The notes under the pieces: model-generated | The model's input: only the letters and a program-made list of their open reading frames with translations | Databases searched by the model: none | Told to the model about the DNA's origin: nothing | Part shown: positions 24,063-36,450 of the stretch, one piece after another | Numbering within the stretch: the first letter of the stretch is position 1 | How the letters are laid out: the number at the start of each line of letters is the position of its first letter | Translations under genes and position numbers: made by a program | Source: Candidatus Hydrogenedentes bacterium ADurb.Bin170 | GTDB lineage: Bacteria; Hydrogenedentota; Hydrogenedentia; Hydrogenedentales; CAITNO01 | Direction: 5' to 3' | NCBI GenBank assembly: GCA_002070275.1 | Contig: MWCY01000011.1 | Span: 19,847 to 83,846, forward strand | Length of the DNA: 64,000 nt

Positions 24063-24090
24063 TCTTATTCACTTAAGCTGAATTGAACCG

Positions 24091-24127
24091 CGAGCGTCAA
24101 ATCTTATTTGGCGCTCGCCTTTTTATA
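24091..24127 (+). terminator. rho-independent terminator after rpsA
   Basis: gcgagcg-N15-cgctcgc followed by CTTTTTAT. Confidence 0.7.
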
Positions 24128-24242: not shown

Positions 24243-26063
24243 ATGGTTGGACTGAAAGCTAAAAAGTCAATCGCACACGGCCAGATCATGAGCGGTGCGG
24301 AAATGACGCTGCAGGTGCTTGCCGAAGAAGGTGTGGACACCATCTTCGGTTACAGCGGCGGCGCCATTCTCCCCACTTATGATGCCGTCTTTCAATACAA
24401 TAAAAATAACCCGGAAAAGCAGATAAACCTGATTGTGCCTGCCAATGAGCAGGGCGCCGGATTCATGGCGGCAGGGTATGCCCGCGCCAGCGGCAATGTG
24501 GGCGTGGCACTGGTTACCTCCGGGCCCGGCGCCACGAATACTGTGACGCCTGTCCGGGACTGCATGGCAGATTCCGTGCCCATCATTGTTATTTGCGGGC
24601 AGGTGGCACGCAACGCCATCGGAACGGATGCCTTTCAGGAAGCGCCGGTGTACAGCATCATGAGCGCCTGTGCCAAGCATGTTTTTCTGGTTAAAGATCC
24701 CAAGCAGCTTGCAGCCACCGTGCGTACGGCTTTTCAGATTGCACGGAGCGGCAGGCCCGGTCCGGTGGTCATCGATCTGCCCAAAGACGTGCAGAACTGG
24801 CAGGGCGCCTATGACAGCGAGTCGGTGCTTCAGCTGCACGGCTATCAGGAACGCACCAATTCCGTTTCGGCACGGCGCATGCCCGAGAAGAAAATGGAGA
24901 GCTTTTTCAAAATGCTGAAGCAGGCGAAAAAGCCGCTGCTGTATGTGGGCGGCGGTGCCGTCATTTCCGGCGCTTCAGCAGTACTGCAGTGCTTTATGAA
25001 GCAGTACCAGATTCCGGCGGTGACAACGCTCATGGGTATAGGCGCTCTGGATACGACCGATGCGCTGTGCCTCCACATGCTCGGCATGCACGGTGCCGCT
25101 TATGCCAATTACGCCGTGGACGATTGCGATCTGCTCATTGCATTGGGCGCACGCTTTGATGACCGCGTTGCCGGCATCCCGCATAAATTCGCTGCCAATG
25201 CCCGTATCGCCCAGATCGATATTGATGCTGCCGAGATCGGTAAAGTGAAAGCTGTGGACTGGTCTTTTGCCGGCGATATCAAAACGGCACTGTCCGATCT
25301 GCTGGAATACGGGAAAGAATTTTCCCTGGATCACAGCGAATGGGTCGCCGCCGTTCAGAAGATGAAAGAAACACATGCTTTCAACTTTAATCGGGAAAGC
25401 GATATCGTGCAGCCGCAGGAAGTGCTGCAGGAACTCAATAAGATTACCGAAGGCAACGCCATTATCGCCACCGGCGTGGGCCAGCATCAGATGTTCGCCG
25501 CCCAGTACTTCGACTTCAAGAAGCCGAGAACGCTGCTTACATCGGGCAGCATGGGTACCATGGGCTTCGGTCTGCCCGCCGCCATCGGAGCACAGGCTGC
25601 CTTTCCCGATGCGCTGGTGATCGACGTGGACGGAGATGGCAGCATCCGGATGAATATCGGCGAAATGGAAACCTGCACCACCTACAATCTGCCCGTGAAG
25701 ATTCTGCTGCTGAACAATCACGGCGACGGAATGGTGGTTCAATGGCAGTCCCTTTACTTTGACAACCGCTTCTCGGGCACCGACAAAACGCTGCACAGCA
25801 AAGATTTTGTGAAAGCGGCGGAGGCGGACGGCTTCGGATTTGCCCGCCGTGTGACAAAGCGCAGCGAACTGGAAGAAGCACTGAAAGCCTTTGTCTCTTT
25901 CGACGGCCCTGCTTTTCTCGAAGTGTTCGTCGATAAAAATTCTTTCGTCTTCCCCATGGTCGGCCCCGGAATGGCGTACAAAGATATGATGACCGGCCCC
26001 TACATCAAGAGCCGCAGTGCCGGACCTACAGACGGCACGCTGGACACTTCCGACAGCTTTTAA
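24243..26063 (+). CDS. ilvB: acetolactate synthase large (catalytic) subunit, ThDP-dependent
   Basis: GYSGGAILP, ThDP motif GVGQHQM...DGDGS...NN. GGAG RBS before the ATG at 24243. Confidence 0.9.
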   Translation: MVGLKAKKSIAHGQIMSGAEMTLQVLAEEGVDTIFGYSGGAILPTYDAVFQYNKNNPEKQINLIVPANEQGAGFMAAGYARASGNVGVALVTSGPGATNTVTPVRDCMADSVPIIVICGQVARNAIGTDAFQEAPVYSIMSACAKHVFLVKDPKQLAATVRTAFQIARSGRPGPVVIDLPKDVQNWQGAYDSESVLQLHGYQERTNSVSARRMPEKKMESFFKMLKQAKKPLLYVGGGAVISGASAVLQCFMKQYQIPAVTTLMGIGALDTTDALCLHMLGMHGAAYANYAVDDCDLLIALGARFDDRVAGIPHKFAANARIAQIDIDAAEIGKVKAVDWSFAGDIKTALSDLLEYGKEFSLDHSEWVAAVQKMKETHAFNFNRESDIVQPQEVLQELNKITEGNAIIATGVGQHQMFAAQYFDFKKPRTLLTSGSMGTMGFGLPAAIGAQAAFPDALVIDVDGDGSIRMNIGEMETCTTYNLPVKILLLNNHGDGMVVQWQSLYFDNRFSGTDKTLHSKDFVKAAEADGFGFARRVTKRSELEEALKAFVSFDGPAFLEVFVDKNSFVFPMVGPGMAYKDMMTGPYIKSRSAGPTDGTLDTSDSF

Positions 26064-26086
26064 ATAACATGTCCTGTCTGTTTCAA

Positions 26087-26116
26087 GCCTCCGGTTTTCG
26101 CCGGAGGCTTTTTTTA
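26087..26116 (+). terminator. rho-independent terminator after ilvB
   Basis: gcctccgg-tttt-cgccggaggc plus TTTTTTT. Confidence 0.75.
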
Positions 26117-29213: not shown

Positions 29214-29555
29214 TTAATGATCGCAGACATTCTCTCCTGATTCCAGAGTGCCCTCCAGGTAGCGCTGCACCAGGGCTTCCACCGGATCGGCCGGTGCGCC
29301 GATAACCACTTCGATATTGTTCTCGGCAAAAAGCGCCTGGGCACGTGCCCCCATGCCGCCGGCAATAATCACCTGGGCATTGCGCTCAGCAAGCCAGCGC
29401 GGCAGCAGCCCGGGCTGATGCTCCGGCGCATCGACCACATCCACTTTCAGAATGCTTTTCTGCTCCGGATCCGTATCCACGAGCGCAAACTGGGCACAGT
29501 GCCCGAAATGAAGGGCAAGATGCCCCTGAACTACCGGTATAGCAACACGCATCAT
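29214..29555 (-). CDS. NifX/NafY/NifB-C-terminal family (dinitrogenase FeMo-cofactor-binding-like, PF02579) protein
   Basis: MRVAIPV...HFGHCAQFALVD...VIIAGGMGARAQALFAENNIEVV is the canonical PF02579 pattern. Confidence 0.85.
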   Translation of the reverse strand: MMRVAIPVVQGHLALHFGHCAQFALVDTDPEQKSILKVDVVDAPEHQPGLLPRWLAERNAQVIIAGGMGARAQALFAENNIEVVIGAPADPVEALVQRYLEGTLESGENVCDH

Positions 29556-29613
29556 TTTCTCTCCTGTTGTTTTTCAGAGTCGGGCGACACATCCGGTGCA
29601 ACCTCGACCTTCC

Positions 29614-30012
29614 TTATGCTTCTGTTTTCATCTGCTTTACTGATGCCGATGCCTGATAATTTTCCAGCGCAGCACGCAGTGTATTCGATGCCAGCAGTGC
29701 ACAGTGCCGGTGCGCTTCCGGCATACCGCCCAGCGCATTCAGAATATCCTGCTGTGAGATTTCTTTTGCTTCCGCAACGGGCCTGCCTTCTGCAAGTTCT
29801 GTCGCCATGCTTCCGCAGGCGCGGGAAGGACCGCAGCCTGTCGTGGTAAACGAAGCGGCACTCACAATACCTTCATCGACCTGCACCCAGAACTCCATCG
29901 TGTCTCCGCAGGGACCGGTTATTCTGGCGTAGCCGTCCGGCTCCTGCAGTTCATCATAATTTCTTGGATTTCTGAAACGTTCCAATGCCTTGGCGCTGTA
30001 GTTTTCTTCCAT
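29614..30012 (-). CDS. IscU/NifU N-terminal-domain-like Fe-S cluster scaffold
   Basis: NPRNYDEL...ITGPCGDTMEF...TTGCGPSRACGSMATE...HCALLASN, with the three scaffold Cys and the His. Confidence 0.85.
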   Translation of the reverse strand: MEENYSAKALERFRNPRNYDELQEPDGYARITGPCGDTMEFWVQVDEGIVSAASFTTTGCGPSRACGSMATELAEGRPVAEAKEISQQDILNALGGMPEAHRHCALLASNTLRAALENYQASASVKQMKTEA

Positions 30013-30041
30013 CTGACTTGTTGTCCCGTATCTAAAAAAGA

Positions 30042-30980
30042 TCAGCCGCCGTTTCCGCTTTCTGCATCTCCGGCATCAGGCGCTGTACCGTCAAGCATTG
30101 AAGCCACCCGGCACCAGATTTCACGGATCGCCTCAGCTGCGGCACCGCCATAATCAAGAACAGTTTTCCCCGCAACCTGCGCCTCCGTCATCCGGCGGTC
30201 ATAACCGATCCGTCCGACCGGACGGGCGCCCATTGAAAGAGCGACCGCTTCAATGCTTTCCGTCAATTCAGAATTGATATCCCACTTGTTGACACACACC
30301 GCCACGGGCACATTAAAATGCTTCGCCAGCCGGGCAACCCGCTCCAGATCGTGCTGTCCGCTTAACGTCGGTTCCGTGATGATCAATGCGAGCGATGTGC
30401 CTGTAATGGAAGCGATCACCGGACAGCCGATTCCGGGAGGACCGTCGATAATCAGTTTTGCAATCCCCTCCTTTTCCGCTCTGTCTCTTGCGGCACGGCG
30501 CACCGTCGACACCAGCTTGCCCGAGTTTTCCGCGGCAATACCCAGCTTCGCATGAACCATGGGCCCGCAGGGTGTCGAAGAAACATACCACTCCCCTGCC
30601 GTACATTCAGGAAAATCAATGGCGGCGGCAGGGCACCAGTCAACACAGACGCCACAGCCCTCACAGGACAGCGGATCCACTGTATACCGGACATCCGCTC
30701 CCGTATCCTCCCGCCGGATACCCTCAAAGCGGCACCGTTCATAACAGTCTCCGCATCGGGTGCAGTCCTCCTGCCTGATTACCGCCTGATGCCCGCTCCT
30801 GAATTCATAATGCTCTTCCGGCTCCGGGTGCAGCAGCAAATGCAGGTCGGCCGCATCCACGTCACAGTCTGCCAGCACCGCCCTCCCGGCAAGAGACGCA
30901 AAGGCGGCCGTAAGGCTTGTCTTGCCCGTTCCGCCTTTTCCGCTGATGATGACCAGCTCCCGGATATCATGCCTGCTCAT
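30042..30980 (-). CDS. MinD-superfamily P-loop ATPase with inserted 2x[4Fe-4S] ferredoxin domain (COG1149-like), copy 1
   Basis: Deviant Walker A ISGKGGTGKTS. CTRCGDCYERC and CEGCGVCVDWCP ferredoxin motifs. Confidence 0.85.
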   Translation of the reverse strand: MSRHDIRELVIISGKGGTGKTSLTAAFASLAGRAVLADCDVDAADLHLLLHPEPEEHYEFRSGHQAVIRQEDCTRCGDCYERCRFEGIRREDTGADVRYTVDPLSCEGCGVCVDWCPAAAIDFPECTAGEWYVSSTPCGPMVHAKLGIAAENSGKLVSTVRRAARDRAEKEGIAKLIIDGPPGIGCPVIASITGTSLALIITEPTLSGQHDLERVARLAKHFNVPVAVCVNKWDINSELTESIEAVALSMGARPVGRIGYDRRMTEAQVAGKTVLDYGGAAAEAIREIWCRVASMLDGTAPDAGDAESGNGG

Positions 30981-31920
30981 AGCGTTCCCCTATACCGAAA
31001 AACAGCTTGTTTTCCCGTTCCATAACACACAGCCTCCCCTCTTTTACCAGCCTGTCCAACAGCTTCGCCGTTTCAAGCCGATGAAAACCCAGCCCTTCCG
31101 CAATCTCCTCCAGGGGACAGGGACGCCGCCTCAGCATTTCCAGCACAGGTGCCTCCTGAGGCAGCAGCACGCCGCCGCTGTCCGGAATGTAACGGGGCGA
31201 AATAATTTCCGCCTCAGGTTCAAAAAAAGAAACATAGCGCTCCATCACGGAAAAAGAAACCGCTTTTACACGGCTCATGGCGGGCGGACGCTCCACCGTA
31301 TTGATCTGCACTTTATCCGGCCGGATCAGCCGCACCTGTGCCGCAATTTCGCGCACGCTGTCTTCATCATCATTGATACCGTCCATTAGAAAGACTTCGA
31401 GCCACAGGGCACCGGAAAACTCATTTCGGAAAGCAATCAGCCCTTCCAGCATTTTTGCAAAAGAAAGTCCCGCGACAGGCCGGTCTATTTTCTGAAAAAG
31501 ACGCTCATTTCCCGCATCCAGCGAGGGTAAAACAACATCCGCATGAAGGAGCGCATCCCGCACTTCCTGCTGCCAGAAGAGCGCACCGTTGGTAATGACT
31601 GCAACAGGAACAGACGTCAGTGATTTTATTTTCTGAATCAGCTCTCCGAGTCCCGTATGCAGGGCAGGCTCCCCGGCGCCCGAAATCGTTATGTAATCCG
31701 GCGCCGGATGTGTGGCAAGAAAAGCAGCCACTTCCTCCAGAACGGCTTCCACGTCCACATAGGCATCGCGCTGCATGGTGTGGCAGGTGGTGCGCCCCTG
31801 CTCGCAGTAGATGCAGTCATAGGGGCAGGTTTTCGCCGGAATCAGATCCACGCCCAGCGATCTGCCAAGGCGGCGTGATACTACAGGACCAAAGATGAAG
31901 GAATGTTTACGGGAAGTCAT
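30967..31920 (-). CDS. radical SAM protein (COG0731-like) with C-terminal winged-helix domain
   Basis: FGPVVSRRLGRSLGVDL...CPYDCIYC (CxxxCxxC). A C-terminal LEEIAEGLGFHRLETAKLLDRLVKEGRL wHTH. Overlaps its neighbours by 14 and 4 bp. Confidence 0.85.
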   Translation of the reverse strand: MTSRKHSFIFGPVVSRRLGRSLGVDLIPAKTCPYDCIYCEQGRTTCHTMQRDAYVDVEAVLEEVAAFLATHPAPDYITISGAGEPALHTGLGELIQKIKSLTSVPVAVITNGALFWQQEVRDALLHADVVLPSLDAGNERLFQKIDRPVAGLSFAKMLEGLIAFRNEFSGALWLEVFLMDGINDDEDSVREIAAQVRLIRPDKVQINTVERPPAMSRVKAVSFSVMERYVSFFEPEAEIISPRYIPDSGGVLLPQEAPVLEMLRRRPCPLEEIAEGLGFHRLETAKLLDRLVKEGRLCVMERENKLFFGIGERYEQA

Positions 31921-32786
31921 GAACGCACCGCCTTTCCTTTCTCACGCTGCCCCGCACCGTCCCGAATTTTTCCGAGCAATTCCATAAAGGATGCTCTGTA
32001 TTCAGGCAACGCATCAACGATCAGGGCACCTCCGGAGTAGGCAGCTGCAATACGGCGATCCTCGGGAAGTGTCAGCAATACCGGAATATCTTCTGCATCA
32101 CAATAATCCCGCACCCTGGCATCGCCCACGTCCGCACGGTTAATCACTACACCGAAAGGAAGCCCGAGGGTGCGAACCGTCTCCACAGCAAGCTGCAGAT
32201 CATTGAGACAGAATGGAGTCGGTTCGGTAACCAGCACAACGTAATCCATGCCCTTCAGGGTCGTGATCACAGGACAGGAGGTCCCCGGCGGCGCATCATA
32301 AATAATCACTGCCGCATCGGGCGCTTTCGCTTTTACCGCTCGGATCAAAGGCGGCGACATAGCAGCGCCCACGCGCAGCGTCCCCTGCACAAAATGTAAA
32401 TCGCCCGCCATTCCACGGCTGACCGTACCGATCGCATGGGAAGATTCAGTCAAGGCTTTTTCAGGGCAGGCAGGCACACAGCCGCCGCAACCGTGACATA
32501 GCTCCGCAAAAACAATCAGCTTTCCCGCCACACAGGCAAGCGCATTGAAACGACAGACTTCCACGCATTTGCCGCAGCCGGTACATAACGCCGGATCCAC
32601 CTGCGGCACAGGAATTCCCGCAGTTTCAGAAAATGAAAGCTCCGGCTTCAGAAAAAGATGACCGTTTGGCGCCTCCACATCGCAATCCACATAAACAGTT
32701 TCGTCACCCTCCGTAAGGGCAGCCAGATTGGCGGCAACGGTCGTTTTGCCTGTTCCGCCTTTTCCTGATGCGATGGCTATGTGCAT
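31917..32786 (-). CDS. MinD-superfamily P-loop ATPase with inserted 2x[4Fe-4S] ferredoxin domain, copy 2 (start MHIAIASGKGGTGKT; the track ORF is over-extended)
   Basis: IASGKGGTGKTT Walker A, plus CTGCGKCVEVC and CHGCGGCVPACP. Confidence 0.8.
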   Translation of the reverse strand: MHIAIASGKGGTGKTTVAANLAALTEGDETVYVDCDVEAPNGHLFLKPELSFSETAGIPVPQVDPALCTGCGKCVEVCRFNALACVAGKLIVFAELCHGCGGCVPACPEKALTESSHAIGTVSRGMAGDLHFVQGTLRVGAAMSPPLIRAVKAKAPDAAVIIYDAPPGTSCPVITTLKGMDYVVLVTEPTPFCLNDLQLAVETVRTLGLPFGVVINRADVGDARVRDYCDAEDIPVLLTLPEDRRIAAAYSGGALIVDALPEYRASFMELLGKIRDGAGQREKGKAVRS

Positions 32787-33006
32787 GAAAGAAAAAATAT
32801 CCTGATGGTTCTGCCTGAATGGAAGTTTCCGTTTTTCAGGACACTGTCCCGGCAATTCCGAAACCTGTCGGGGCCGTCGGGAGCGACTCCGGTTCCGGAA
32901 TTGCCGATTGAACGGACAGTGCGTCAGTAAGGAGAAAAGAGAAACTCTATAATTAACATGCCTGTCGGGGGTCAGACAAAGGGTCTGAGCAGGAGCAGTT
33001 GCCTGC

Positions 33007-33375
33007 TCAAACCCAATGGCCATCCACAGCGGCAGCATGCATTTCCGCGAGGGCATCACGGCGCCACGCCTGCAGCGCCTCCGAAATCGGTACTTCATCC
33101 GAATGATAAACCCGTATGGATGATGCAGCAAATACAGTAAAGGCTTTGGGGCCGCAATGCCCTGTAACGAGAGCACTTGCTCCCGCTTTCACTACGGCCT
33201 GCGCTGCCTGTATGCCTGCTCCCTGAGGCGCGTTGACATTCTGCTGATTCTCCACCACCGTGTACTCGTCTGTGTCGGTGTCATAAATTAGAAAGCCATC
33301 GGCACGCCCGAAACGGGAACATACAAGCGCATTCAGATCTTTTCCTGATGTCGAAAATGCAATTTTCATAATCAT
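33007..33375 (-). CDS. NifX/NafY-like (PF02579) protein
   Basis: MKIAFSTSGKDL...FGRADGFLIYD...ALVTGHCGPKAF. Confidence 0.75.
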   Translation of the reverse strand: MIMKIAFSTSGKDLNALVCSRFGRADGFLIYDTDTDEYTVVENQQNVNAPQGAGIQAAQAVVKAGASALVTGHCGPKAFTVFAASSIRVYHSDEVPISEALQAWRRDALAEMHAAAVDGHWV

Positions 33376-33418
33376 TTCTTTTCCGGCAGCCGTGCAGGGC
33401 ACTGCTGCTTCCGCTGCG

Positions 33419-33703
33419 TCAGCGGTCAGATGACTTTTCAAGAGAAGCCAGACGGTCCTGTACTTCTTCCAGTGCGCCCTGAAGCCGGGCGGCCTGTTCG
33501 CGCAGGGACTGTGACTCTGTTTCGGAACTTAAACCGAAACCACGACCGAAACCACGACCGAAACCCATACCGCCGCGCATACCGCGGCCTGAACCCGCAC
33601 CACGGCGCGCAGCCATACCACGACCGTCACGCAGGCACCCGCCTGCACCACGCCCCGTCAGGGCGCCTTTTCCGCAAGGTCCTGTTCCATCTCTTCCAGG
33701 CAT
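33419..33703 (-). CDS. DUF5320-like Gly/Arg-rich protein with C-terminal coiled coil
   Basis: MPGRDGTGPCGKGALTGRGAGGC... Gly/Arg-rich N-terminus. LREQAARLQGALEEVQDRLASLEK coiled coil. This family is usually found beside PF02579 genes. Confidence 0.65.
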   Translation of the reverse strand: MPGRDGTGPCGKGALTGRGAGGCLRDGRGMAARRGAGSGRGMRGGMGFGRGFGRGFGLSSETESQSLREQAARLQGALEEVQDRLASLEKSSDR

Positions 33704-33706
33704 AAT

Positions 33707-34393
33707 CTAGTTCCTTTCTTCTTTGTCCAGACTGCCTCTGTTCAGCAGCCATTCTTTCACATCCATCGGAGACATCTGCTTCTGCTGCGACAGCGCCCGG
33801 AACGTCGATCCGGGATCCGCCGTGAAACCCGCTTCCTGCAGGCGACTCAGTGTGTCTTCCAGAAGAAGCCCGGCATCGTCACAAAATTCCTGCACGGTCA
33901 TGCGACCGACACCTGTACCATGACCTGATGCAGGATGCACCGCCTCTGCAGAGAGCGCACCGGCACAGCTTCCAGCTTTCTCCTCTTCGGTCAATGCTGT
34001 AAGGAAGCTGAACGGCGGCACTTCAAAAATGGCACCTGCCGACAGCAGCAGAAAAAGAAGGAGTGCCGTGACCGCTTCTTTTTTCAAATGAAGCCGCTGT
34101 TTTAAAAACAGATAGCGCAACAGAATGCGCCAGTTGAAGTACACATGAATCAACCCGGCAACAACAAAAGTGCAGGCCATAATGATGTGCAGGGCATTCC
34201 ACTGATCTTTCGACAGCAGCAAAACACGCCAGCCTGTTTCCCGGGCAATGCGACAGGACGGAGCAAGGTAAAGCACGAGACCGGACACCGCCAGTGTCAG
34301 AAAAACCAGGCTGATCAGAAAACTGGTAAGCCCTCTGCCGTGCCAGGGCGTTTTCTGTTTGTCTGTTGCCTCTTGTGTGCTCACTGTCATCAT
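33707..34393 (-). CDS. small integral membrane protein (4 TM, conserved His in helices; DUF4405-like?) with soluble C-terminal domain
   Basis: Hydrophobic helices LTSFLISLVFLTLAVSGLVLYL, LHIIMACTFVVAGLIHVYF, ALLLFLLLSAGAIF. Confidence 0.65.
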   Translation of the reverse strand: MMTVSTQEATDKQKTPWHGRGLTSFLISLVFLTLAVSGLVLYLAPSCRIARETGWRVLLLSKDQWNALHIIMACTFVVAGLIHVYFNWRILLRYLFLKQRLHLKKEAVTALLLFLLLSAGAIFEVPPFSFLTALTEEEKAGSCAGALSAEAVHPASGHGTGVGRMTVQEFCDDAGLLLEDTLSRLQEAGFTADPGSTFRALSQQKQMSPMDVKEWLLNRGSLDKEERN

Positions 34394-34399
34394 GCTACC

Positions 34400-34906
34400 T
34401 CACTCATGCCCGAAGGGGCGGTTGCAGCCGGGACATACGGCTGATTCCGGATGCCTCCGGCAGTTGGGAAGACGGCAGCCGCACTCAGGACATACGGAAT
34501 GCCCTCCAGAAAACCCGGGTTTGCCTCTGCCGTATCCCTGTCCTTTTCCGGCGCCGCACCGGCGCCCGCCGGAACCGCAGCCCGGCATGGCAAAAGCGCC
34601 GCTGCAGACAGTGCCTGCGAGCACTGCTGCCAGTATTTCTTCAACATCACCGGAGATAAACGGGATCAGCTGAATGCCGGCGGCAGAAAGCCAGTCGGCA
34701 AAACGCCGGGATACAGCGCCGCACACCAGCTGCCTTACGCCCAGTGCTTCAAGCTGTGAAAGCAGATTCTGTACGGTGCCTCCGGCAATTTCTTTTTCCT
34801 GACGGGACACCACAACCCCTTGCTGCAGCTCAACGACAAGAAACGTCCGGGCTGTATCCAGCACCGGAGAAATGCGTTGTTCCCTTACTGTCAGTGCAAT
34901 CTTCAT
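34400..34906 (-). CDS. NifX/NafY-like domain fused to Cys/Gly-rich zinc-ribbon-like tail
   Basis: An N-terminal PF02579-like MKIALTV...LVCGAVSRRF...LIPFISG. The tail GCGSGGRRCGAGKGQGYGRGKPGFSGGHSVCPECGCRLPNCRRHPESAVCPGC. Confidence 0.8.
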   Translation of the reverse strand: MKIALTVREQRISPVLDTARTFLVVELQQGVVVSRQEKEIAGGTVQNLLSQLEALGVRQLVCGAVSRRFADWLSAAGIQLIPFISGDVEEILAAVLAGTVCSGAFAMPGCGSGGRRCGAGKGQGYGRGKPGFSGGHSVCPECGCRLPNCRRHPESAVCPGCNRPFGHE

Positions 34907-34931
34907 CAGCAGTTCCTTGTATACCTTCTTA

Positions 34932-34947
34932 GAGCATACACCGTGCC
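34932..34947 (-). promoter_or_regulatory. candidate sigma-54 (-24/-12) promoter TGGCAC-GGTGT-ATGCT for the NifX/MinD/radical-SAM operon
   Basis: The minus strand reads TGGCACGgtgtATGCT with correct N5 spacing. GG and GC are conserved and the -12 reads ATGC instead of TTGC. It lies ~25 nt upstream of the ATG at 34906. Confidence 0.5.
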
Positions 34948-35020
34948 AATGATCAAAATATTTTTAACATACTGATATTAAATGAATTACAGGAGAGCGG
35001 GATCGCATTTTCGGCGAGAT

Positions 35021-35088
35021 AAGTCGCATTAATGCGACTATTAGAGATGCAACAGTCGCAATAGTGCGACTTATTTGCGACGCGTCGC
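35021..35088. promoter_or_regulatory. three dyad-symmetric GTCGCA/TGCGAC sites (candidate enhancer/UAS for the adjacent sigma-54 activator)
   Basis: AGTCGCAttaaTGCGACT (35021-35038), AGTCGCAatagTGCGACT (35053-35070), TGCGACgcGTCGCA (35075-35088). Centres are ~32 bp apart, at about -108 and -140 from the -12 element. Confidence 0.5.
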
Positions 35089-36450
35089 AGGAGGGAGCGT
35101 CAGGCCCAGAGCACGAACCTTGCGGAACAGCGTGCTCTTATGCATGCCCAGCAGATCAGCCGCTTTCTGCCTGTTTCCATCGCACGCTTTCAGGGCATCG
35201 AGAATGGCACGGGCCTCCGCTTCCTGAACCGCATTGTTCAGCGACGGAGCAGTCCCAGCGCCGGAGCGGCGGTAAAAAGCCTGCATCGCTTCAGGCAGAC
35301 ATCCGACATCAATGAGCGGCCTGTCACACAGCACGAAGGCATGTTCAATGCTGTTCTCCAGTTCACGGATATTACCCGGATAGTCGTAGGACATCAGCAG
35401 GCGCATTGCCTCCGCAGTGACCCCTTCTACCGTTTTATTCTGCCGGAGATGATTGTTACGACGGATAAACCGGTCCACGAGCAGGGGAATATCTTCCCGG
35501 CGCTCCCGGAGCGGCGGCAGTTCCAGCCTGATCACATTGATTCTGTAATAAAGATCCTGCCTGAAAAGTCCTTCCTGAACCAGTGCGCCGAGCGATTTGT
35601 TGGTGGCGGCAATGATGCGCACATCTGTGTGAAATGCGCGGGTTGCGCCCAGCGGCTCATACTGCTTTTCCTGGAGCACCCGCAGCAGCCGAACCTGCAT
35701 GGCAGGGCTGATATCCCCTATTTCATCCAGAAAAAGGCTCCCTTTTTCCGCCAGAGCAAAGCGGCCGGGCTTGTCTTTGTCCGCTCCGGTAAAAGCACCT
35801 GCCTGATACCCGAAGAGCTCGGACTCCAGCAGCGTATCAGGCAATGCGCCGCAGTTGATGCCAAGAAAAGGTCCTTTGTGCCGGCCGCTCAGATCATGAA
35901 TTGCCCGTGCCAGCAGCTCCTTGCCGGTACCTGTTTCTCCTTCTATGACAACAGGCACCTCGCTGGCTGCCACCTGCGGCAGCATCTGAAAGAGTTTTTC
36001 CATGGCGGCACTTCTGCTGACCATGTCGCCCAAGTCATAGCGATGTTCAATTTCACGCCGCAGCTCTTCCACAAGACTCAGATCACGAAAGGTTTCCACA
36101 CCTCCCACAACATTTCCCCTTTCATCCTTCAGCAGTGCAGTTGAAAGACTGATGGGGATGCGCTCTCCTGCCGCATCGACGATATAGACAGATTTGTTAA
36201 TGATGGGTTCCCCCGAATCCAGCGTGTGACGCAGGGCGCATTCCTCTTCGCAGGTGCTGGCGCGAAAAACTTCGCAGCAGCGCCTGCCCAGTGCTTCTTC
36301 CCGGGGAATACCGGTGATCTCTTCGGCGGCGCGGTTGAAGGAGGTAATACGCCATCCATGATCTACCGTGAATACTCCGTCGGAAATACTTTCCAGAATA
36401 ATCTCCGTGCTCTCCGGCGGCAGCATATCTTTGGAAAAAGGCTGATCCAT
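35071..36450 (-). CDS. sigma-54-dependent transcriptional activator (PAS - AAA+ - Fis-type HTH), PAS domain with Cys4 cluster
   Basis: GAFTGA motif, ESELFGY, Walker A GETGTGKE, and a C-terminal HTH. The PAS has CC-x6-C-x3-C (RRCCEVFRASTCEEEC). Confidence 0.9.
   Translation of the reverse strand: MDQPFSKDMLPPESTEIILESISDGVFTVDHGWRITSFNRAAEEITGIPREEALGRRCCEVFRASTCEEECALRHTLDSGEPIINKSVYIVDAAGERIPISLSTALLKDERGNVVGGVETFRDLSLVEELRREIEHRYDLGDMVSRSAAMEKLFQMLPQVAASEVPVVIEGETGTGKELLARAIHDLSGRHKGPFLGINCGALPDTLLESELFGYQAGAFTGADKDKPGRFALAEKGSLFLDEIGDISPAMQVRLLRVLQEKQYEPLGATRAFHTDVRIIAATNKSLGALVQEGLFRQDLYYRINVIRLELPPLRERREDIPLLVDRFIRRNNHLRQNKTVEGVTAEAMRLLMSYDYPGNIRELENSIEHAFVLCDRPLIDVGCLPEAMQAFYRRSGAGTAPSLNNAVQEAEARAILDALKACDGNRQKAADLLGMHKSTLFRKVRALGLTLPPATRRK

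Follow-up and report, generated by a model that had tools for sequence, protein, structure and literature searches.

The orp-like operon and its long junction

The window analysed here, a 64-kb stretch of Hydrogenedentes DNA, carries on its minus strand a gene cluster (29214..36450) that looks like an orp (orange protein complex) cluster with its two halves fused in tandem. The closest protein relatives point, by their source names, to Candidatus Hydrogenedentes of anaerobic-digester metagenomes, and the DNA samples in which this population is found include JGI 3300009767 and 3300028576, ENA ERZ27249281, and SRR31560030. A gene for a sigma-54 activator with PAS, AAA+, and HTH domains (36450..35071, minus strand) precedes the operon itself, whose gene order, from 5' to 3' of the transcript, is NifX-like, DUF4405, DUF5320, NifX-like, spacer, MinD-ferredoxin (MinD-Fd), radical SAM, MinD-Fd, NifU_N, and NifX-like. 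The gene upstream of the spacer (33007..33375, minus strand; stop codon TGA at 33009..33007) was assigned to the NifX-like proteins by its translation and its Nitro_FeMo-Co/Di-Nase domain (Pfam PF02579, E = 7e-24). The gene downstream of the spacer (31917..32786, minus strand) encodes, according to Pfam, a MinD/CbiA P-loop ATPase with two 4Fe-4S motifs (Orp3/Orp4-like); it starts with an ATG at 32786, and its N-terminus, MHIAIASGKGGTGKT, is conserved among relatives. A first-pass annotation of the same DNA had described a 220-nt spacer between the NifX-like gene and the second MinD-ferredoxin gene. The position and length are correct (32787..33006, minus strand, between the NifX-like stop at 33007 and the MinD-Fd start at 32786), but the MinD gene is the first and not the second in the direction of transcription, and it opens the downstream half of the operon directly past the spacer. 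All remaining junctions of the operon are 3–58 nt long or overlapping, as against 220 nt here, which agrees with the first-pass figure of less than 60 nt.

The transcript that crosses the spacer is presumed to originate from a candidate sigma-54 promoter located before the first gene of the operon (TGGCACGGTGTATGC, 34948..34934, minus strand), which has one mismatch to TGGCAC-N5-TTGC and lies 28 nt before the ATG at 34906. Two tandem palindromes identified in the sequence, GTCGCA-N4-TGCGAC (35019..35074, minus strand), are candidate enhancer sites of the neighbouring activator. The region from the activator to the first NifX-like gene (35074..34934, minus strand) has an OrpR-like regulatory layout.

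In Desulfovibrio vulgaris, five Orp proteins, among them MinD-like ATPases with two 4Fe-4S motifs as well as Di-Nase/NifX-like proteins, assemble into a single complex, and their genes are located in two divergent, separately promoted operons that depend on sigma-54 and OrpR (PMC6345978; PMC8359166). The Hydrogenedentes operon has both kinds of protein in common with the D. vulgaris orp clusters, as well as a PAS-containing sigma-54 activator and palindromic enhancer sites 5' of a –24/–12 promoter, which are predictions in the present case (PMC8359166; PMC6345978). On the other hand, the D. vulgaris halves are divergent operons with a promoter each, whereas the halves in the window are in tandem with a structured spacer as the seam, and the palindromes do not have the sequence of the OrpR site in D. 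vulgaris, GGGCGYRTTTTGCGCCC. The Hydrogenedentes operon also includes radical SAM, DUF4405, DUF5320, and NifU_N genes as extra members, and the likeness is one of gene kind. By analogy, the gene products of the operon plausibly need to be made in set ratios.

Fold, conservation, and distribution of the spacer

The mRNA strand of the spacer folds at –90.6 kcal/mol, compared with –63.2 ± 4.9 kcal/mol for dinucleotide shuffles (z = –5.63), and none of 200 shuffles was as stable; among the nine intergenic regions of the window, the spacer ranks as the most structured, and its earlier description as highly structured is borne out. Hairpin A (32981..33014, minus strand), identified by the fold and by a repeat search, consists of a 13-bp G+C-rich stem (8 of 13 pairs are G-C) and an 8-nt loop. 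Its 5' arm takes in the last two codons of NifX and the stop codon, and the stem is followed only by UUUG. This hairpin lies partly outside the spacer and was missed in the first-pass inventory of structures. A linker (32923..32980, minus strand) follows, which is mostly unpaired as judged from alignments, composition, and minimum-free-energy folds; its 3' 34–38 nt are 61–76% A+U across lineages. Hairpin B (32841..32922, minus strand) is defined by the fold, a structural alignment, pair counts, and a covariance model. It has an outer stem of 9 bp (32922..32914 with 32849..32841), a bulge of 7 nt on the 5' side only (32913..32907), an inner stem in which 15 of 16 positions are complementary (32906..32891 with 32865..32850), and a variable apical region (32890..32866). 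The 11-bp repeat nested inside an 8-bp repeat that had been noticed at first is this hairpin, with actual lengths of 15/16 bp inside 9 bp. Between hairpin B and the MinD-Fd gene, the window species has a further CCUGAA..UUCAGG hairpin (32814..32840, minus strand; from the fold) and, from the sequence, a U-rich tract adjoining the MinD-Fd ATG (32787..32801, minus strand). The ATG lacks a well-spaced Shine-Dalgarno sequence in the window, where an AGGA is located 13 nt from it.

Orthologous junctions were collected from contigs encoding MinD proteins of decreasing identity to the window protein, and four further lineages have the module: L085 (MinD 89% identical; spacer of 219 nt), L097 (72%; 217 nt), L088 (71%; 238 nt), and L091/L093 (71%; 237 nt). 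Strains with an identical MinD protein have spacers that are 99% identical and are hence uninformative. Both hairpins are present in the individual minimum-free-energy structure of each of the five lineages. The only conserved primary sequence of the spacer is in the linker, where the conserved letters are ATG (32959..32957), ATA (32950..32948), and TCTCCTTAC (32935..32927). The TCTCCT within the context TCTCCT(T/A)A is invariant and lies 5–9 nt upstream of hairpin B, and the arrangement ATG-N6-ATA is also shared. The stretch from hairpin B to the start codon is not conserved among the lineages. The CCUGAA..UUCAGG hairpin becomes CAUGAA..UUCAGA in L085, with the loss of two pairs, and could not be aligned in L088, L091, and L097, and the U tract and the AGGA are not kept in the relatives, even in the 89% relative L085. 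The second hairpin, the U-rich tract, and the start codon without a good Shine-Dalgarno sequence, all of which the first-pass annotation had listed, are therefore present in the window but are not conserved features of the junction.

Outside these five lineages, the same gene pair is arranged differently. The NifX-like and MinD genes are 41 nt apart in L099 (MinD 67% identical) and 93 nt apart in L100 (64%), in both cases without the module, and 644 nt of other sequence separates NifX from MinD-Fd in L095 (66%). The gene calls in that 644-nt stretch (L095 2357..3000, also in L096) have no Pfam domain and disagree between two assemblies, and could belong to a degenerated or a novel gene. Scanning metagenomes with the conserved NifX end and hairpin A as the anchor recovered only the window species and the L088 species and added no lineage, and a scan of genome contigs reached only relatives of ≤52% identity. 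Since the more distant relatives have junctions of 41–93 nt, the module is, in the loci compared, a clade-specific insertion into an otherwise tightly linked NifX-MinD pair, restricted to a single small clade. Since close relatives do without the module, it is not essential for the operon.

The pairing of hairpin A is kept in all six sequences compared, where 78 of 78 cells of the 13 pairs are standard; two pairs changed on both sides and eight are invariant, the latter partly because the 5' arm is coding. Hairpin B was missed by RNAalifold on the raw MAFFT alignment because an indel of one base pair at the bulge shifts the register between two clades. In a structural alignment made by hand to fit the structure, with N as a gap placeholder, 96.2% of 131 cells pair across five lineages, of which three to four are independent, and 12 of the 29 pairs have compensatory changes on both sides in the same hand-fitted alignment. 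For four of five measures, no column shuffle came up to the real alignment (0/500); for the fifth, the number of further standard pair types, 12 of 500 did so. When the 3' partners were slid by 1–3 columns, pairing fell to 26–46% with at most two both-side pairs. One outer pair is G-C, A-U, or U-A, depending on the lineage. The constant elements of hairpin B are the two stacked helices of 9 bp and 15–19 bp, the 7-nt one-sided 5' bulge, and invariant G-C pairs at the junction, while the apical 18–25 nt, the bulge sequence, and most of the stem sequence vary. The covariation analysis in related genomes proposed in the first-pass annotation has thus turned out in favour of a structure that is kept in orthologous operons.

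Compensatory change could, however, be mimicked by arm-to-arm template switching in DNA palindromes. The module could accordingly be read as a DNA-level or selfish palindromic insertion (a REP/MITE-like remnant or a protein-binding palindrome) without RNA function, fixed in the ancestor of the clade, with intramolecular template switching maintaining the complementarity of its arms. Its restriction to a narrow clade and absence from relatives would fit such an origin, as would the 11-nt arm cores of hairpin B, which are nearly palindromic themselves (CGGmA-N-TkCCG), and a variable loop with a drifting stem is also expected of a neutral palindrome maintained by conversion. Yet the ends have neither terminal repeats nor a target duplication, the arms are unlike the GTCGCA-N4-TGCGAC enhancer sites, and only one copy of hairpin B was found in the 64-kb window, and across 327 kb of related loci the covariance model (R1) recovered the orthologous junctions alone. 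Furthermore, both hairpins fold more stably as sense than as antisense RNA in all five lineages (10 of 10 comparisons, by 0.8–10.8 kcal/mol) because the G-U pairs lie on the mRNA strand, an asymmetry that is unexpected for a DNA palindrome. For hairpin A alone, the sense strand is 3–10 kcal/mol more stable in 5 of 5 lineages, and at the window locus the hairpin B covariance model gives 90 bits for the minus strand as against 30 bits for the plus strand. The spacers of the window and L085 are 89% identical, compared with 75–76% identity at the four-fold degenerate sites of the flanking genes, and this slow evolution relative to synonymous sites includes the non-palindromic linker. The strand asymmetry and the slow evolution of the spacer point to selection on the transcribed RNA and not on a DNA palindrome. 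We therefore regard an insertion acting only at the DNA level as very unlikely, and judge it highly probable from the compared sequences that the spacer contains a conserved and selected sense-strand RNA structure.

Several coding explanations for the spacer were rejected. A 419-aa open reading frame starting at a GTG (33176) stays open through the spacer and would extend the N-terminus of MinD-Fd, but its part upstream of the ATG exceeds 300 nt in the window only, and it was dismissed as a chance or artefactual frame because stops close it in relatives, 3–9 nt upstream of the MinD ATG in L088 and L091. The differences in spacer length among the lineages are not multiples of three. A leader peptide from the conserved ATG (MLIIEFLFSPY* in the window) is not supported, as it has no Shine-Dalgarno sequence, varies from 5 to 11 codons by lineage, and shares only ATG-N6-ATA. 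A decayed DUF5320-like zinc-ribbon gene was likewise rejected, as the spacer has no similarity to one, no Pfam match, and a BLASTP E value of 3.3 against the Dehalococcoidales gene of this kind. In Dehalococcoidales MAGs, a NifX-MinD gap of 226–229 nt is a real small DUF5320-like gene, unrelated to the window spacer, that begins with MPRGDGTGP... and has two CPxCG zinc-ribbon motifs (L002 3775..4000, L003 508..735, and L005 1818..2046).

Public records of the junction have irregularities of their own. One public gene call for the MinD-Fd protein (P0001; 312 aa) is 23 codons too long (32787..32855, minus strand), with a start at a TTG in the 3' arm of hairpin B, and a MinD gene started inside the hairpin is flagged here as a recurrent annotation error. 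Two short public contigs (L094 and L098) begin in or beside the spacer, at or immediately past hairpin A, and L090, the end of a 55.6-kb contig, stops slightly further upstream, inside the NifX gene. These ends probably reflect assembly breakage at inverted repeats, although they could be RNA ends if the runs are metatranscriptomes.

Possible termination, internal promoters, and ligand sensing

Hairpin A resembles intrinsic terminators and attenuators in that it has a 13–15 bp G+C-rich stem just 3' of a gene, with U residues after it in four of the five lineages, and it was the top-ranked terminator-like site in a 20-kb scan, which accepted it only by counting U's spread over 8 nt. Intrinsic terminators combine a G+C-rich stem-loop, which is present here, with a U tract of about 5–8 nt. 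The tails of hairpin A are UUUG (window and L085), UUUU (L088), UUUC (L091), and CUCA (L097), so that the tract amounts to 3–4 U or, in L097, none, and the stem overlaps the stop codon. As the genuine terminator of the window has five U's, hairpin A was rejected as a canonical terminator. That textbook intrinsic terminator, AAGCCTCCGG..CCGGAGGCTT followed by TTTTT (26085..26110, plus strand), is located after a gene ending at 26063 and, as predicted from its sequence, shows that the window organism uses canonical U-tailed terminators. A further 13-bp hairpin (24090..24118, plus strand) lies in a 45-nt gap between genes on the same strand, extending into the beginning of the following ORF. No U tail follows hairpin B, and no alternative anti-terminator pairing is conserved. 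An internal attenuator, one of the three functions proposed in the first-pass annotation, consequently appears doubtful.

The shape of hairpin A is also relevant to a reading in which the operon consists of two transcription units. Hairpin A would terminate the sigma-54 unit, the A+T-rich block (ATG-N5-YATA ... TCTCCT) would be or contain a promoter, and hairpin B would serve as a stabiliser of the 5' UTR or as a regulatory stem. The rank of hairpin A in the 20-kb scan, the concentration of the spacer's conserved primary sequence in the linker, and the separate transcription units of the Desulfovibrio orp halves (PMC6345978) all speak for such a division. The window and L085 also have a weak sigma-70-like pair, CTGACC-18-TATAGA, that matches at 8 of 12 positions; it was rejected as a promoter since it is not conserved across the lineages, although the promoter rules of Hydrogenedentes may differ from the consensus. 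The candidate –10 elements lack the key final T in all four versions. The sigma-54 motif TGGCAC-N5-TTGC is absent from the window spacer at ≤2 mismatches and no such motif is conserved among the lineages, with the reservation that the consensus may not be that of the host; partial matches occur only in the window and L085. In the apical part of hairpin B, CGGAACCGGAGTCGC (32897..32883, minus strand; CGGAACCGGAGTTGC in L085) has the GG-N10-GC spacing with 2–3 mismatches, and this match, which is absent from the other three lineages, is probably due to chance. Against two units also stand the short or missing U run after hairpin A, compared with the TTTTT of the genuine terminator, and the 41-nt junctions of relatives, which leave no room for a promoter. 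On balance, we consider two transcription units unlikely, though less so than the other alternatives to a processing element.

No known RNA family was recognized in the spacer. A search with Rfam 15 returned no match at the gathering score in the whole window, only chance-level eukaryotic matches (E = 0.36 and 1.3) in 32500..33300, and, in three orthologous loci, no match with an E value of 1 or below, nor was a tRNA or tmRNA found. The Rfam scan that the first-pass annotation had suggested thus gave no known cis-regulatory RNA, and the metal- or cofactor-responsive RNA it had offered as an example appears doubtful as well. Ligand sensing finds little support because the loop and bulge sequences are not conserved, the helix is plain and long, and the element occurs at one locus in a narrow clade without an Rfam match. 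Riboswitches are recognized by a conserved unpaired pocket and by recurrence at related genes; hairpin B is a single unbranched helix in which the apical 18–25 nt and the bulge vary, and among the sequences scanned it occurs only at the orthologous junction in five lineages. Riboswitch-like sensing by the spacer is unlikely on these sequence features. Resemblance to integron attC sites or iron-responsive elements was also dismissed, as the core sequences were absent on inspection, and visual inspection gave no conserved pseudoknot that would join the bulge or loop to the flanks.

A broader regulatory role may also be considered, in which hairpin B is the site of a regulatory protein (a product of its own operon or a global RNA-binding protein) or a sensor RNA (a feedback, redox, or cofactor attenuator) that controls translation of, or read-through into, the MinD-Fd half. 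The retention of a 7-nt one-sided bulge in all lineages with invariant junction G-C pairs, the invariant UCUCCU that precedes the hairpin by 5–9 nt, and the weak ribosome-binding site downstream in the window, which leaves room for translational control, would be in keeping with such a site. However, the bulge and the apical loop vary in sequence, the element lacks a multi-stem junction, a pocket, and an Rfam match, and it is confined to one locus. The stretch through which hairpin B would act on the start codon is not conserved either, and hairpin B has no U tail of its own or a conserved downstream hairpin with one. Sequestration of the Shine-Dalgarno sequence by the anti-SD-like UCUCCUUA was rejected, as its duplex energies with the region from the end of hairpin B to just past the start codon were no better than those of shuffles (fraction as good, 0.19–0.80). 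A regulatory-protein site or sensor is accordingly quite unlikely. Still more improbable is a specific form of this idea, in which hairpin B, the 7-nt bulge, and the UCUCCU box would constitute a dedicated RNA switch, bound by an Orp-type protein or responsive to redox state or metal clusters, that sets the ratio of the NifX-like half to the MinD-ferredoxin half in a complex of the orange-protein type. If true, such a switch would be a post-transcriptional counterpart of the two separate OrpR-dependent promoters of Desulfovibrio.

A possible role in mRNA processing and stability

The anatomy of the module, with a 3' hairpin, an A+U-rich single strand, and a long 5' hairpin, best fits the remaining function proposed in the first-pass annotation, an RNase processing or stability element, although the mechanism itself is put forward only tentatively. 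Modules have been described in which a protective hairpin at a 3' end is combined with a cut in an unstructured A/U-rich stretch just 5' of a stable hairpin, including papBA and operons reshaped by programmed decay (PMC5927463). The Hydrogenedentes spacer resembles such modules, in which RNA is selectively processed and stabilized (SRPS modules), for example those of E. coli papBA and malEFG and the operons of Dar and Sorek (2018) (PMC5927463), in having a hairpin directly after the upstream cistron, followed by an unstructured A/U-rich stretch and a stable hairpin before the downstream cistron. The conserved hairpins A and B flank a mostly unpaired linker of 61–76% A+U, the setting is similarly an operon with products that are plausibly needed in unequal or set amounts, and the structure is kept while the sequence drifts. 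In contrast to the SRPS modules, which are marked by a mapped endonucleolytic cut and by unequal half-lives of the two segments, the Hydrogenedentes module is a candidate predicted from sequence and is confined to one small clade, and hairpin B, at about 25–28 bp, is much longer than their typical 5' protective stems.

Long hairpins in mRNAs are also processed by RNase III, as in the rpsO-pnp leader, the rnc leader, and phage T7 R1.1. Hairpin B is similar to these substrates, as it is located between cistrons and forms a long, near-perfect helix that exceeds two turns and is interrupted by an asymmetric internal bulge, and it is the length of the helix rather than the sequence that is conserved. 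Substrates of RNase III have about 20 bp or more of double-stranded RNA and are cut by the enzyme on both strands with a stagger, and hairpin B has 9 + 15–19 bp in all lineages. Because its length exceeds two helical turns, hairpin B is a plausible RNase III substrate on the basis of the predicted helix, although the 7-nt one-sided bulge is larger than in classical substrates. Motifs of the RNase E type (RN|WUU) carry no weight as evidence, given how short they are.

From this anatomy we infer a possible course of events that comprises co-transcription, cleavage, and an effect on stoichiometry. The orp-like operon would be transcribed from the sigma-54 promoter at 34948..34934 across the spacer. 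Co-transcription of the NifX-MinD pair is likely to be the ancestral state, judging from the other Hydrogenedentes in which the two genes are 41 or 93 nt apart. The spacer would divide the NifX/DUF4405/DUF5320/NifX half from the MinD-Fd/radical-SAM/MinD-Fd/NifU/NifX half, with hairpin A closing the upstream half of the messenger. As the NifX stop codon sits in its 5' arm, hairpin A would form only after the departure of the ribosome from that codon. The A+U-rich and largely unpaired linker with its UCUCCU(U/A)A would lie between the hairpins, and hairpin B, as a helix of about 25–28 bp with a 7-nt bulge, would head the downstream half. An endonuclease would then cleave either the linker, if of RNase E/Y type, or the long helix, if of RNase III type, after which hairpin A would guard the 3' end of the upstream fragment from exonucleases and hairpin B, or its remnant, would guard the 5' end of the downstream fragment. 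As a result, the two halves of one transcript would differ in how long they last and how much protein they yield. Hairpin A, given its short U run, may also terminate some transcripts, and the stop codon inside it could link protection or partial termination to the translation of NifX. By analogy with the described modules, our tentative reading is that the spacer acts as a clade-specific structured segment of a polycistronic mRNA that sets the upstream half against the downstream half by processing or stability, a possibility we hold open with less than even confidence.

The spacer RNA matches no described RNA family, and in kind it is a well-known type of intercistronic mRNA structure, found in a few uncultured lineages. 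It adds an undescribed RNA motif with clear covariation in five lineages, and opens no long-standing question. The locus illustrates clearly, for an uncultured phylum, how a structured RNA was inserted into a tightly coupled gene pair and then kept by selection. If the processing model is true, a lineage with fused orp units would have regained independent control of the two halves of a metal-cluster complex.
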